A stretch of DNA of 64,000 nt from Phormidesmis sp. (GCA_965248535.1 CBDFJR010000005.1:768001-832000); one strand, 5' to 3'; counted from the first letter of the stretch, positions 1 to 4,836 are shown. A program made the numbers and translations. The notes: generated from the sequence alone by a model not told the origin.

Positions 1-1701
1 CTGAAAATCAGTATTCCCTTGAAGTGTCTGGTTTGGGTTAGCCAGTTTAGAATGTGCGCCTAGGCTGCGAATACTACTTTGTGCAAATACAAGCCAAGTT
101 TGCTTTTTAATGCTGTCTGATAGAGCCAAACGCAGTTGACGATCTTGCTCAGAAACAGGTTCGTTTAAGAGATAGTCAACACCAATCACTTTCGCTTGAG
201 CTTGAGTCAGTTGGTTAATTAGCGTAGCGAGATAGCGCCGATCAATGGGGTTAGTGGTGAGAGATGGAAACTCTGCGGCGGCTGCGTTGAGCGAGTCTTG
301 ATCGATAGACACTAGAAGCACTGGAGGCGACAGGGGGTTAGCAGGTTGATGAAGCCCCACCCTAGATCCAATATCTTGCGCGATCGCCTGCACCGCAGTG
401 CGTCCGTTAAAGAGACGATTTTGCAAGGGTGCAATCAAACTGAGAACGGCTATCGTAGCCACTATTGCTGACTCACGTCGCGTCGGCTGCCACTTTTGTC
501 TCTGTCGCTCTAGAAAACTCCGTTCTAACTGAAAAGGCAGTGCCTCAGGGTGGCGAAATTGAGCAGGAACTAGATAAGCAGAAGGATGATCAGCCCGTTT
601 ATTTTCCAGGTGAGCACAAGCCCTGTTCATCGCCTCGTGTAGTGGACAATGATGGCGAAGGTGATGGCACAGGTGGTCTAAAAAATGGGTAGCCGCATCG
701 ACATGAATAAGGTGCTTCATGGCGATCGCGTGACTCAAACCCAGATCTATTAGACTATGGGCAAAGTGATAGGTGTTGCATGAGATCAAGATGGCAACTT
801 TCCAGCCATTGGCGATCGCGGCTTTAAACTCCTCTTGATATTGGTGAAAATGCATTCTTTCTTGAGCACCAAAATGAATGCAGCCACCTGTCAAAAATTC
901 CTGTGCTCCGTGACCCGAAAACACCACAATGTCTGGCCCTTCTTTGAGCTTTTCTAGAAATTGTTGACGTAGCGCCTCAGGGGTTCCACACTCTTTTGAT
1001 GTCAGAGTTGTGACCTTTACCCCTCCTGCCTGAGCCAGCCTATTAACTAAATTTTCGTGTTTCAAAAACTTGGAGGCTTCCGGTTCATCTTTACTGTGGG
1101 CAATCACCTGTAAAACCCGAATGCTACCCCGCCGCTCAAGCGTTTGATCACCAGAGGTTTGCTGGCTGGTAAACCGATTTTCAACGGTTCTCCCTAAATA
1201 TATTCCCTCTTCAATCTTAAACGTGCGCCAAGGCAAGTGATGAACTATATCCCTCGGAGGACAATCACAAAATACTAAAACCTCAACAGGGGTCAAGAGA
1301 TCAGGCCCGATCTCTCGGCGGATCTCTCGAATAGCATTCCAAATTAAGTCTAGTTGGGGCTGGTTTAGCCACGCATGAAAGGCAGGAACTAGAGCGTTTT
1401 CAGCCTTTGTTATACCTGCATCATTGCTCGACTCATCATCGGGCTGATCAGTGTCAGGAGATAGCAAGGCAACCCGGTTTTGAGCCGTATTCCATGTGCT
1501 TTTATAATTCCTTTGCCAAGCGTCATCAGCGCCCTTTAAGTGATCCCATGCCCGTTTTCCGATCCCTGATGTTAATACATCTTGAATGATCGGACTGATA
1601 TTTCTAGTAGGATGCGTAACAATAAACTCATAGCGACCCTCACTGTCGGAGGAACGGCGAATTTGTAGGTGAATTGTAGGAATTTGATAGGATTGAACCA
1701 T
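1..1701 (-). CDS. CHAT-domain / TM / CHASE2 sensor protein, 3' end runs off the window (absent from the ORF track)
   Basis: Hand translation from ATG 1701 is open to base 1 (567 codons): MVQSYQIP...HHLPWRTF...PDIVVFSGHG...KVAILISCNT (CHAT His/Cys), hydrophobic segment SAIVATIAVLSLIAPL, then CHASE2 start PVLLVSIDQDSL...PIDRRYLATLINQL...AKVIGVDYLL. Confidence 0.85.
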   Translation of the reverse strand, partial: MVQSYQIPTIHLQIRRSSDSEGRYEFIVTHPTRNISPIIQDVLTSGIGKRAWDHLKGADDAWQRNYKSTWNTAQNRVALLSPDTDQPDDESSNDAGITKAENALVPAFHAWLNQPQLDLIWNAIREIRREIGPDLLTPVEVLVFCDCPPRDIVHHLPWRTFKIEEGIYLGRTVENRFTSQQTSGDQTLERRGSIRVLQVIAHSKDEPEASKFLKHENLVNRLAQAGGVKVTTLTSKECGTPEALRQQFLEKLKEGPDIVVFSGHGAQEFLTGGCIHFGAQERMHFHQYQEEFKAAIANGWKVAILISCNTYHFAHSLIDLGLSHAIAMKHLIHVDAATHFLDHLCHHLRHHCPLHEAMNRACAHLENKRADHPSAYLVPAQFRHPEALPFQLERSFLERQRQKWQPTRRESAIVATIAVLSLIAPLQNRLFNGRTAVQAIAQDIGSRVGLHQPANPLSPPVLLVSIDQDSLNAAAAEFPSLTTNPIDRRYLATLINQLTQAQAKVIGVDYLLNEPVSEQDRQLRLALSDSIKKQTWLVFAQSSIRSLGAHSKLANPNQTLQGNTDFQ

Positions 1702-1800
1702 AACTAAATAGATCTTTGAACTAGATTAAAGGGCCGTTGCCCCATGTCTCCAACGATTGAAGAGATAGAGCAACAGCAGCACCCTGGAGTTTAGATAGGT

Positions 1801-2952
1801 TCAAAATATAAGTTGTGGTAGCTTTTCTTGAAACCCATCAAACGCGATCGTCACCTCCAGTTGATCACCCGGTAGAGGGTGGATGAGTTTAGTTTCATTG
1901 GTAAACAACTCTTGACCCGGCTTGGTCAATTCCTTGTCTAACAGCACCTCGTTAGAGTTAGTTCGTTTCACCTCTAGGCGTAAACCCCGATTGCTGGGCA
2001 ACAGATCGTCATAGCGATCGCGCACCAACAGCAAGAGTGTCCACGCTCCTTCAGAACACCAGGTTGCAATCATCAACTCAAACAATTGCCCATCTAGATG
2101 AACATCTTTGCACAGAGCACGCGCCTCTGAGGGAACACCTAGGGTTTTCTTAAGGTGAATTAACCTAGACTCAAAGCCACCCGCCATCGCACCCGCCAAC
2201 ACAAATGGACGATCGCTAATGCCCGCTTGATAGTGTTCTTCCAACAATCGTCGATTGTTTATTAAGTCGGGCATATTGATCGCACGAGTGCGAGGCATTG
2301 CCGACTTCCACCAATTTTGGTAGGAAGGAAACTCTTCTAAGGCAAAGCATTCATCCAAGTCAAACGTTTGAGTCTCAGGTGTTTCTTCGCATTGAGAAAT
2401 GCCCGATCGGTAGAGCATCACATAGTTAGACAACTTAGCAAACCCTGGAATTTGGACATAATCTAAACGATCGCCAAACACCACCGGAAAGCACCCCATG
2501 CGATGAGCCAATAGCTCAGAACTCAGAGAATACTGGCTTTCTCCGGGCAACACTGGGCGGCATTCAACTCTCTCTTGCACCCCCGACAGATATAGATCCG
2601 CCGCCATTCCCGTCCGACGAGACAGAGCATCCCAACTATCACTCCGTTCTAGATCTGACTCAATCTCGATCCAGTTCAAATAAGAATGAACTGCATACAC
2701 GGCGAGAGTATTCAAATAGACTTGTCGCTTGATTTTCAGATCAGATTGCTCGGCTGCAAAGGCACGGGCATAGGTGTGGGCATCAAGACCAAGGGGCACT
2801 TGAATCGCGTTGGGTAAAGAGGGAAGATTAGTAGACATTGTGAACTTCGGACTCTCCTGTTTTATAGGTTGGGTGGTTTCTTCTGCGTTCGTAAGCGGAT
2901 GGACTGAATTATCTTTGGTTGAATGGTTTTCAACCCGATCGTGCGTTCCCAT
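1801..2952 (-). CDS. DUF1822 family protein
   Basis: YLNTLAVYAVHSYL...SDSWD...ADLYL...VECRPVLPGE N-terminal motif; C-terminal beta domain; typical position between sigma-like and CHASE2 genes. Confidence 0.85.
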   Translation of the reverse strand: MGTHDRVENHSTKDNSVHPLTNAEETTQPIKQESPKFTMSTNLPSLPNAIQVPLGLDAHTYARAFAAEQSDLKIKRQVYLNTLAVYAVHSYLNWIEIESDLERSDSWDALSRRTGMAADLYLSGVQERVECRPVLPGESQYSLSSELLAHRMGCFPVVFGDRLDYVQIPGFAKLSNYVMLYRSGISQCEETPETQTFDLDECFALEEFPSYQNWWKSAMPRTRAINMPDLINNRRLLEEHYQAGISDRPFVLAGAMAGGFESRLIHLKKTLGVPSEARALCKDVHLDGQLFELMIATWCSEGAWTLLLLVRDRYDDLLPSNRGLRLEVKRTNSNEVLLDKELTKPGQELFTNETKLIHPLPGDQLEVTIAFDGFQEKLPQLIF

Positions 2953-3712: not shown

Positions 3713-3850
3713 AAGTTAGCTCCAGAATCACTCAGCGTCATCCAGACGATTAGGGTCATTGTCAAGGTCGTGGGCCAAAGGCTCTGAAGGCACCTCGTCT
3801 GAGGTTTGAGCAGGAGCAGAGCGATCCCGCTCAAACGATTCTGATACATA

Positions 3851-4836
3851 TCAATTATCCTCCTCTAAATTGGGGTTGAGTTGCGTTAGAAAATGTGAGT
3901 CTAGAAGATCTGTGAGAAAGGGCGAGTTTTGCAAAGCCTGCGGAACGAAAGGAAGGTTTTGCAGTTCTTCAGACACCAAGGCGTTGAACCAGTCAACCAA
4001 CTGGTGTTGCGGAAAATCTCTAGACAGGGAGATGCCGCAGATTTCTCGCAGTGCCCGATCGAAGGCTCGTTTTTGAGCCGTTTGATAGTTAGCCCCAGAG
4101 TATTTGTTCACCCCAACCAAGTGCTGGATGGCATGCACCAATCGGGCACCGCACCTAGAGCGATCGCCGGGGGACGATCTGCAAAAGGTGTGAACAAGCT
4201 GGAGTAACTCGGTGTCGGTAAGCTGACTTTTTTTTTGAGCACAAAGGCAGACGGGTCTAACCCGACCAGTTCTACCGCATTGCGCCCGGCTTGATAGGCG
4301 ACTTCGATGCCCCGTGGGTCATTTCCTAGCCAGGTGTAAAACCCAGCAGAAAACTTAGTGGCAACGCGATCGCTAATCGCATCTTGAGTGCCAATCACAT
4401 AGTTAATAGATTGACAAATCGCAATGGCTTGCACCTCCGAATAACACGCATTGAGAACTACACATTGCACATAGCGACTCGCTAACGCAAACAGATTTGC
4501 CAACGCATTCGACTGAATGAACTGACGATTATCAATGCGATAGTCATCGACTGTGATCAGGTGTTTTTCAATCTCACTCTCAAACACTAGCCCTGCCTCA
4601 CCCCCGCCGTGGCCAATAAAGTGGACAATCTGTGGCTTCTCTTTTGCCAGAGCAAACTGCAAATCTTCAGCATTGACTGCCCAGTAGGTTTTATAGGTAA
4701 ATCGATGTGAGTGTTGGCAGGCATTGAGCACAGTTTCAATCTTGCGGGCTTCGACATCTAGGTCTAGCGGTGAACTACCTTTGGGGTTCGCTGCTAGAAG
4801 CAGAATGTGAATTTTGGGTTCAGTCTGGTCAGCCAT
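3851..4836 (-). CDS. CHAT protease with a sigma-region-2-like C-terminal domain reached through a -1 frameshift at an A9 run (track ORFs 4108..4836 and 3851..4141)
   Basis: ILLLAANPK, IVHFIGHG, CVVLNACYS (His/Cys dyad). T9 at 4228-4236; one extra A gives LKKK-SQLTDTELLQLVHTFC...NYQTAQKRAFDRALREI...DWFN, 328 aa. Confidence 0.75.

Follow-up and report, generated by a model that had tools for sequence, protein, structure and literature searches.

Introduction

CHAT proteases, which have the caspase fold, can control a transcription factor by cutting a partner protein. The TPR-CHAT protein Csx29 of type III-E CRISPR cleaves Csx30, an inhibitor that binds CASP-sigma via its N-terminal domain (Strecker et al., Science 2022, PMC10028731), and HetF of Anabaena PCC 7120, which consists of a CHAT domain, a transmembrane (TM) segment and periplasmic TPRs, cuts PatU3 after Arg117, PatU3 being the protein that sequesters HetZ (Xing et al., PNAS 2022, PMC9457339). 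CalpL cuts CalpT, and a set of SAVED-CHAT, PCaspase and PCc-sigma is described for type III-B CRISPR (bioRxiv 10.1101/2023.06.23.546230). In the DegS/RseP-RseA-sigmaE and RsiW-SigW pathways, a signal at the envelope results in an anti-sigma factor being proteolysed and in a sigma factor of the extracytoplasmic function (ECF) type being released (PMC10028731). Kaur, Iyer, Burroughs and Aravind (eLife 2021, PMC8195603), in a purely computational study, described proteins made of EACC2, a caspase domain and a variable C-terminus, for which CHASE2 with TM helices is named; most EACC2-caspase neighbourhoods also encode an ECF sigma factor as well as a DUF1822 protein, and the authors proposed that stimulus-induced peptidase activation is coupled to an ECF sigma output. 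We report here on a gene cassette of this kind in Phormidesmis sp., located at one end of a stretch of 64,000 nucleotides (GCA_965248535.1, CBDFJR010000005.1:768001-832000, or G000:C5:768001-832000 in our numbering) that is called the window below. The open reading frames (ORFs) of the cassette all lie on the minus strand, within positions 1-4836.

The core of the locus is a three-gene cyanobacterial cassette that encodes a divergent ECF-type sigma factor, a DUF1822 protein and an EACC2-CHAT receptor protease. We put it at somewhat better than even that the sensor-gated CHAT domain cuts DUF1822 and so releases the sigma factor. The initial annotation of the window had already suggested this type of mechanism by reference to Csx29-Csx30 and HetF-PatU3-HetZ, two precedents that hold in the consulted sections of the papers (PMC10028731 and PMC9457339). 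It had also stated that no mechanistic description was known. This needs amending, given the outline mechanism of Kaur et al. 2021, and stands as far as experiments are concerned: a search of the literature on DUF1822, DUF928, EACC2 and CHASE2/CHAT-sigma in cyanobacteria, with most subscription journals not covered, found no experimental study of the cassette. The gene set was thus computationally described in 2021, and the copy studied here is a divergent further example.

Results

Conservation and layout of the cassette

We examined 20 kb around one sigma-like family member in each of 40 genomes and annotated the ORFs with our own profiles. DUF1822 was the next same-strand gene within 1.5 kb of the sigma-like gene in 35 of the 40 loci, and in 32 a CHAT protein came after it, giving the order sigma-like, DUF1822, CHAT, a recurrence beyond chance; the gene neighbourhood noted in the initial annotation is a real one. 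An EACC2-type N-terminus was detected in 18 of the 32 third-gene CHAT proteins. Eight of the 32 carried CHASE2, and in all of these (8/8) the next gene was DUF928. Among the eight loci in which the order was not found, two have genes between the sigma-like and DUF1822 genes (L069, L077), two end with the contig (L065, L067), two have a lone sigma-like gene (L071, L074), one has no CHAT gene that we could detect (L064) and one is rearranged (L060).

The features of the window copy are as follows, with positions counted from the first letter of the window.

1..1701, minus strand: receptor protease, 5' two thirds of the gene (residues 1-567 of 858), ORF open at the window edge; Pfam CHAT and CHASE2
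1801..2952, minus strand: DUF1822 protein, 383 residues from the first ATG; Pfam DUF1822
2999..3712, minus strand: sigma-like protein, 237 residues; predicted fold and profile-profile comparison
3851..4141, minus strand: 96-residue ORF between the small CHAT and sigma-like genes; match to the sigma-like family profile
4108..4836, minus strand: small CHAT protein, 242 residues; Pfam CHAT
4837..5289, no strand: intergenic region from the small CHAT gene to a divergent 156-residue ORF; likely site of the operon promoter, no significant motif

The intergenic gaps of the cassette are short or the genes overlap, and none of the five minus-strand ORFs of positions 1-4836 matched an NCBIfam model. These ORF calls agree with the four co-oriented genes initially recognized. 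That list was right for all four and incomplete, as it omitted the fifth ORF (96 residues, 4141..3851) and two linked genes to the left of the window. Likewise, the CHAT-TM-CHASE2 architecture ascribed to the last gene is correct, the gene itself being cut by the window: it extends a further 876 nucleotides to the left, and the whole gene (G000:C5:767125-769701) encodes 858 residues.

The 237-residue protein resembles ECF sigma factors in predicted fold

The AlphaFold model of the 237-residue protein (predicted local distance difference test score, pLDDT, 67.2) has two helical domains, with the following predicted parts.

About residues 5-105: sigma-2-like domain (predicted fold)
About residues 98-143: disordered linker, a 46-residue stretch with pLDDT under 50
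About residues 139-236: sigma-4-like helix-turn-helix (HTH) domain (predicted fold)

A VIA-align fold search run against 48,161 chains returned a list topped by sigma factors, with both domains matched in the correct order. Residues 6-105 aligned with the sigma-2 domain of SigW (5wuq; Z 8.0, root-mean-square deviation (rmsd) 3.0, 86 residues) and with region 2 of sigmaE (2mao; Z 7.7, rmsd 3.5, 94/106 residues), while residues 139-236 aligned with sigma-4 domains (3mzy, Z 7.0; SigL 3hug, Z 6.7, 78/80) and with region 4 of sigmaE (2h27; Z 6.0, 69/69 residues). The anti-sigma complexes SigW-RsiW (5wuq), SigK-RskA (4nqw) and CnrH-CnrY (4cxf) were among the best fold matches. When the model was submitted to Foldseek, every listed row was titled sigma factor or transcription-initiation complex (best E-value 2.4e-3).

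Profile-profile comparison pointed the same way. The alignment of the 70-member family (A3) was compared by hhalign with the six short Sigma70_r2-bearing (ECF-like) sigma factors of the genome, and matched them at 96.9% (E 1.9e-10) over 139 collinear columns that span both domains. An Atlas feature search, taken as a lead only, scored 0.97 for clusters that are named sigma-70 and 0.95 for those with Sigma70_r2. Family profiles searched against PDB sequences found nothing significant for this protein, and a word-index homologue search with it retrieved just four proteins, the query included. Three further loci (42-45% identity) were found when metagenome contigs were searched with the single 237-residue protein; they were not used in the locus counts. 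The family as a whole comprises 472 cluster representatives at E <= 0.001 and was found in 95 of the 401 genomes sampled from the phylum, which amounts to 53 of 156 genera; multiple copies per genome are frequent.

From the predicted fold and the profile comparison we conclude that the 237-residue protein is a very divergent ECF-type sigma-like protein, with a predicted function at RNA polymerase. The label sigma-like, given at the outset, is thus borne out by these two approaches, though sequence models miss the protein. As this family illustrates, sigma-type factors can evade all standard sequence models.

The DUF1822 protein and its predicted complex with the sigma-like protein

The Pfam DUF1822 model (PF08852) matched the 383-residue protein with 88.8 bits (cut-off 25), residues 53-175 alone covering profile positions 2-128 of 370. 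In the family alignment A2, the C-terminal half too can be aligned to other DUF1822 proteins. Because of the family alignment and of an AGGAG upstream of M39, the sequence suggests that translation in fact starts at M39 (window 2838). The protein is soluble, having no hydrophobic segment. In the structure model (pLDDT 70.6) the N-terminal alpha/beta domain is confident, with pLDDT reaching 87-97 in blocks that cover most of residues 51-170, and three parts can be distinguished.

About residues 50-215: N-terminal alpha/beta domain (structure model)
Residues 220-259: low-confidence linker (structure model)
Residues 278-377: C-terminal beta-sandwich (structure model)

The model therefore has the two domains that were first proposed as well as a linker between them, and the candidate linker stretch then pointed out, FVLAGAMAGGFESR (residues 250-263), falls at the C-terminal end of the low-confidence linker. 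The best fold matches of the N-terminal domain were PD-(D/E)XK nucleases, namely I-Ssp6803I (2ost; Z 8.6, rmsd 3.4, 117/148), Hjc (1ob8, Z 8.4, 105/119; 1gef, Z 7.5; 2wcw, Z 6.8) and D212 (2w8m, Z 6.2), and the C-terminal domain had many matches to Ig/FN3-like sandwiches with Z up to 6.9. Foldseek gave no clear match for the DUF1822 model, and a profile search of PDB sequences with DUF1822 found nothing (best E 0.25). Csx30 and the known anti-sigma domains were absent among the 50 DUF1822 fold matches listed, a relation being still possible. The model thus points to a restriction-endonuclease-like alpha/beta domain with a beta-sandwich after it, without repeat helices, and not to a TPR fold.

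Conservation was measured in 40 aligned DUF1822 sequences (that of the window and 39 from the sampled loci), 38 of which are aligned at the columns counted. D119 is D or E in 36 of the 38, E130 is E in 35 and C131 is kept in all 38. Where the catalytic lysine would be expected, 28 of the 38 have Arg and the remainder Ile, Cys or another residue; because Arg prevails there, nuclease activity of DUF1822 appears doubtful. The two DUF1822 paralogues of the genome are not significantly similar by BLASTP (E 0.049), and the A2 profile aligns just their C-terminal halves.

A complex was predicted from the sigma-like protein (alignment of 70 sequences) and DUF1822 residues 39-383 (alignment of 29), together with three controls. 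The prediction of this complex had been suggested from the start as a check, and it passed: its score was 0.84 (runs 0.84, 0.80 and 0.85), compared with 0.00 for the best of the three controls. In a reference set the 0.84 mark is reached by 116 of 157 solved complexes and by 2 of 215 mismatched pairs, counts that are only a rough guide here as custom alignments were used. At least 80% of the contacts agreed between runs, and the pLDDT of the partners was at least 72. Since no solved DUF1822 relative was found by sequence, recall of a known complex by the predictor is an unlikely source of the score. On the sigma side the interface comprises residues 20-64 (sigma-2), 128-153 (linker) and 187-234 (sigma-4); on the DUF1822 side it is restricted to residues 48-213, the linker and the beta-sandwich being left free. 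The model supports binding of the sigma-like protein by the N-terminal domain of DUF1822, with both sigma domains contacted, and DUF1822 may act like an anti-sigma factor without belonging to a known anti-sigma family.

The receptor protease

Pfam recognized CHAT (42.4 bits) and CHASE2 (49.9 bits) in the window part of the receptor, and in the full 858-residue protein CHAT (41.3 bits) and CHASE2 (PF05226; 62.1 bits, residues 439-761). Hydrophobic segments lie at residues 413-431 (the TM segment), 763-783 and 811-844 and flank CHASE2; because of their positions, the predicted topology of the receptor is cytoplasmic for the N-terminal part with CHAT and external for CHASE2.

The catalytic residues were located in an alignment of 52 CHAT domains from the genome and related loci, a column being called conserved at 85% or more. 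A single His column (51/52) and a single Cys column (52/52) are conserved. They contain H264 (FSGHG) and C308 (LISC) of the receptor as well as H76 (FIGHG) and C131 (LNAC) of the small CHAT protein, so that the His/Cys dyads and motifs initially quoted for both proteins are confirmed.

The EACC2 model that we used was built from 26 related N-termini and is defined by position in those proteins; it was not taken from Kaur et al. This hidden Markov model (HMM) matched the window receptor weakly (E 0.008, 3.6 bits). An alignment of the receptor and its nearest relative, compared by hhalign with the EACC2 alignment, gave 87.3% (E 3.8e-6) over 60 columns. The N-terminal domain of the receptor is, from these sequence comparisons, a probable divergent EACC2.

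The small upstream CHAT gene and the 96-residue ORF

The small CHAT protein (242 residues; Pfam CHAT 33.7 bits, cut-off 24) has no hydrophobic segment and is predicted to be cytoplasmic. Its CHAT domain is one of a large group of paralogues that occur in 61 of 401 genomes (best non-self identity 50%) and carry a wide variety of fused C-termini. Across the 40 sampled loci, a co-oriented CHAT gene was never seen immediately upstream of the sigma-like gene. We therefore do not count the small CHAT gene as core: it is probably a neighbour or a lineage-specific addition. Its inclusion as a member of the system in the initial annotation is accordingly not upheld.

The 96-residue ORF shares 34 nucleotides with the end of the small CHAT gene and has no Pfam match above cut-off. 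When all ORFs of the genome were searched, it matched positions 34-90 of the sigma-like family profile, that is the sigma-2 part (20.7 bits, E 2.1e-4), and it may be what is left of a duplicated sigma gene or else a genuine small gene. The idea that it is a split-off N-terminal extension was dropped, as the longer family members do not match that profile region twice.

Linked genes, a second cassette and other neighbours

The system runs past the left edge of the window, where it includes a DUF928-like exported protein and a secreted CHAT protein of the two-partner secretion (TPS) type. The first is encoded by a 247-residue ORF (L003:6398-7141, minus strand, L003 being the extracted locus) that overlaps the stop of the receptor gene by 17 nucleotides and begins with an N-terminal hydrophobic segment. 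It has no Pfam match, and our own DUF928 (PF06051) HMM was not significant. Its three best Atlas clusters are DUF928 (0.90, 0.89 and 0.89, with 202-206 shared features), and it sits where DUF928 sits in all eight CHASE2-type loci. A gene converging on it (L003:1842-6392, plus strand) encodes a protein of 1516 residues in which a TPS secretion domain (123.2 bits) is combined with CHAT at the C-terminus (167.6 bits). No TpsB (ShlB) gene is adjacent to this TPS-CHAT gene; the two of the genome are at C5:2,164,738 and C5:2,388,245. Also outside the window, at L003:3-524 (minus strand), a gene whose product has a DUF4347 domain (167.6 bits) begins beside an alpha/beta hydrolase gene; its frame continues beyond the extracted locus, which covers 174 residues of it.

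The same genome has a second, more canonical cassette with the same order at C5:2,366,137-2,372,982 (locus L018, G000:C5:2366137-2377399). It encodes a secreted CHAT protein (440 residues), a sigma factor of 404 residues with a Sigma70_r4 match (24.5 bits), a full-length DUF1822, a CHAT-CHASE2 protein (777 residues) and DUF928. Upstream of it are genes for a hybrid histidine kinase with CHASE2 and for a response-regulator kinase, and a TpsB gene lies about 16 kb away.

Other genes of the window were noted near the first cassette. A mobile-element gene about 4 kb away (8877-10091, plus strand) encodes a 404-residue IS605 OrfB/TnpB-type protein (OrfB_IS605 105 bits, Cas12f1-like TNB domain 78 bits, HTH_OrfB_IS605 64.4 bits). 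The genes for a 528-residue B12-binding radical SAM protein with DUF4070 (6937-8523, minus strand) and for a 290-residue acyltransferase (DAGAT/Acyltransferase; 5817-6689, minus strand) have no evident link to the cassette.

Two further searches concerned promoters. A scan of positions 1-5400 for sigma-70 promoters and terminators gave sites no more numerous than in shuffled sequences. The word pair TGAACA and TAACT, separated by 12-13 nucleotides on the minus strand, occurs at window positions 4110 and 5156 (G000:C5:772110 and 773156) and in four copies genome-wide; one copy is upstream of the small CHAT gene and one inside the 96-residue ORF, upstream of the sigma-like gene. As about 0.4 matches of this size between the two regions are expected by chance (our own estimate), we do not count this pair as evidence for a shared promoter motif.

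Discussion

We propose that the N-terminal domain of DUF1822 would clamp the sigma-like protein and hold it inactive. A signal outside the cytoplasmic membrane would act on CHASE2. The DUF928-like protein, which is exported, and the TPS-CHAT protease, which is secreted, are linked to the cassette by gene position and would form an outside arm that is probably involved in this signal. The cytoplasmic CHAT domain (H264/C308) would then be switched on and cut DUF1822, most plausibly in the exposed interdomain linker or else in the C-terminal part, and the freed sigma factor would steer RNA polymerase to its own set of promoters. We infer the cleavage step by analogy with Csx29-Csx30 and HetF-PatU3.

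Several observations weigh against this scheme. The 237-residue protein has neither a Pfam nor an NCBIfam match; no Sigma70 Pfam model was matched at E <= 0.01 by any of the 70 family members, whose hits were limited to generic HTH models and weak; and a Sigma70_r2 scan of the genome brought 13 other genes over the cut-off and not this one. The fold matches with Z of 6-8 are middling by VIA-align's own scale, and the pLDDT of the sigma model is just 67. For the 383-residue protein Pfam gives DUF1822 alone and no known anti-sigma family. The EACC2 domain is weakly detectable in this copy. The promoter searches were negative as well: bipartite words upstream of the sigma-like genes reached at best 4 of the 10 CHASE2-type loci (shuffled maximum 3-4) and 8 of all 40 loci (6 when shuffled), and no promoter motif is shared within the window locus either. 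Finally, the complex score is a model confidence obtained from custom alignments and cannot tell inhibition from activation; of the anti-sigma idea in the initial annotation, it is thus binding that has gained support (0.84 against 0.00 for the controls), and inhibition that the model does not single out.

This last point leaves room for DUF1822 being a positive partner or adaptor of the sigma factor, acting in its stability, folding or delivery to RNA polymerase, while CHAT acts on itself or on another substrate. DUF1822 matched no anti-sigma family, which suits such a role, and Kaur et al. 2021 propose an 'autopeptidase activation' of the EACC2-caspase and, in the sections consulted, do not name DUF1822 as the substrate (PMC8195603). 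The predicted interface, however, spans sigma-2 and sigma-4 together. ECF anti-sigma inhibitors keep the sigma factor closed by covering both of these domains simultaneously. A cleavable inhibitor would also suit the close arrangement of three genes in fixed order, one of them for a protease, and we consider the adaptor role unlikely. The protease might instead cut the sigma-like protein itself in the disordered linker (about residues 98-143), with DUF1822 presenting or protecting it. The 46-residue stretch of pLDDT under 50 between the sigma domains would offer a place for this, and a type III-B PCaspase does cut the putative sigma factor PCc-sigma directly (bioRxiv 10.1101/2023.06.23.546230). 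Against this, part of the linker (128-153) is buried in the predicted DUF1822 interface, and splitting sigma-2 from sigma-4 is expected to inactivate the sigma factor, with no obvious output; direct cutting of the sigma factor seems to us distinctly improbable.

We also considered a conflict or defence system, in which DUF1822 would be a nuclease-fold effector unleashed by the protease and the sigma factor would add a transcriptional arm. The PD-(D/E)XK nucleases that head the fold matches of the N-terminal domain, the conserved acidic pair formed by D119 (36/38) and E130 (35/38) and the placing of EACC2-caspase genes among counter-invader systems by Kaur et al. 2021 (PMC8195603) all speak for it. 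Yet the catalytic lysine position is Arg in 28 of 38 sequences, a Z near 8 is middling, and the conserved surface of the N-terminal domain is taken up by the predicted sigma contact. PADLOC, run on six locus proteins, gave no defence-system or cas match for any of the six beyond a weak generic CHAT (E 2.8e-4), and we rate a defence role as highly doubtful. As for the view that these genes are mere neighbours without a common function, it fits the small CHAT gene and the 96-residue ORF, which are not conserved with the cassette, but the order of the three core genes is kept in 32 of 40 loci, each from a different genome, the core set is duplicated in the same genome, the gaps are short or overlapping and the complex model passes its controls; for the core, this view has hardly anything to recommend it.

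Release of the sigma factor by cleavage of DUF1822 remains our preferred reading, and a bolder form of it can be drawn, which we offer tentatively as possible rather than probable. DUF1822 would represent a new soluble class of anti-sigma factors whose clamp derives from a restriction-endonuclease-like fold and whose conserved linker and beta-sandwich serve as the handle that a receptor caspase cuts; together with the TPS-CHAT and DUF928-like proteins it would belong to a two-tier caspase cascade across the envelope, in which an outside protease makes or unmasks the CHASE2 ligand and an inside protease frees the sigma factor. If true, bacteria would possess a parallel to death-receptor-to-caspase signalling whose output is transcription.

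The gain for this window is modest, as systems of its kind were catalogued in 2021. New here are the fold and profile evidence for a sigma factor that escapes the models, a predicted complex that passes its controls and defines an interface, and a corrected fold for DUF1822. In addition, the small CHAT gene proves not to be core, and two partners are placed beyond the window. If the model holds, many cyanobacteria free a dedicated sigma factor via a caspase-fold protease fused to an outside sensor, a route from envelope to transcription that is unlike the serine- and metallo-protease ECF cascades and whose logic is near that of Csx29-Csx30 and HetF-PatU3. Experiments could start directly from the predicted contact between DUF1822 and sigma, from the exposed linker or from the catalytic Cys308.

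With the EACC2-caspase systems of Kaur et al. the locus shares a CHAT domain with its His and Cys, an ECF-type sigma factor and DUF1822 as neighbours and the outline from stimulus through peptidase to sigma factor. It differs in that DUF1822 is called 'a TPR protein' there, whereas our model has an alpha/beta N-terminal domain and a beta-sandwich; the consulted sections of that study (PMC8195603) do not present DUF1822 as sigma binder or substrate and do not mention DUF928 or TPS-CHAT. Classical ECF anti-sigma factors mostly reside in the membrane and are cleaved by serine or metallo-proteases, in contrast to the soluble partner and the caspase-fold cysteine protease fused to a sensor that are found here. 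The CalpL-CalpT-CalpS and SAVED-CHAT/PCaspase systems likewise have signal-activated proteases tied to a sigma factor and a small partner, and a two-caspase cascade too; they respond to cyclic oligoadenylates via SAVED domains in a defence context and, as far as the consulted part of the report goes, lack CHASE2 and DUF1822 (bioRxiv 10.1101/2023.06.23.546230).

Like the receptor, HetF sits in the membrane, with its CHAT domain in the cytoplasm, a TM segment and a further domain in the periplasm, and its substrate is a soluble inhibitor of a transcription regulator; unlike the receptor it has periplasmic TPRs and not CHASE2, and hetF is not described, in the sections consulted, as adjoining the gene of its substrate (PMC9457339). 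Csx29-Csx30 also has a CHAT protease and a soluble inhibitor bound by its N-terminal domain to an ECF-like sigma factor, as is predicted for DUF1822, and Csx30 is cut outside the sigma-binding domain. The trigger of Csx29 is target RNA bound by Cas7-11, whereas the window system has a membrane CHASE2 sensor, and CASP-sigma is easily matched to ECF factors (HHpred 100%, PMC10028731), whereas the sigma-like protein of the window escapes Pfam.

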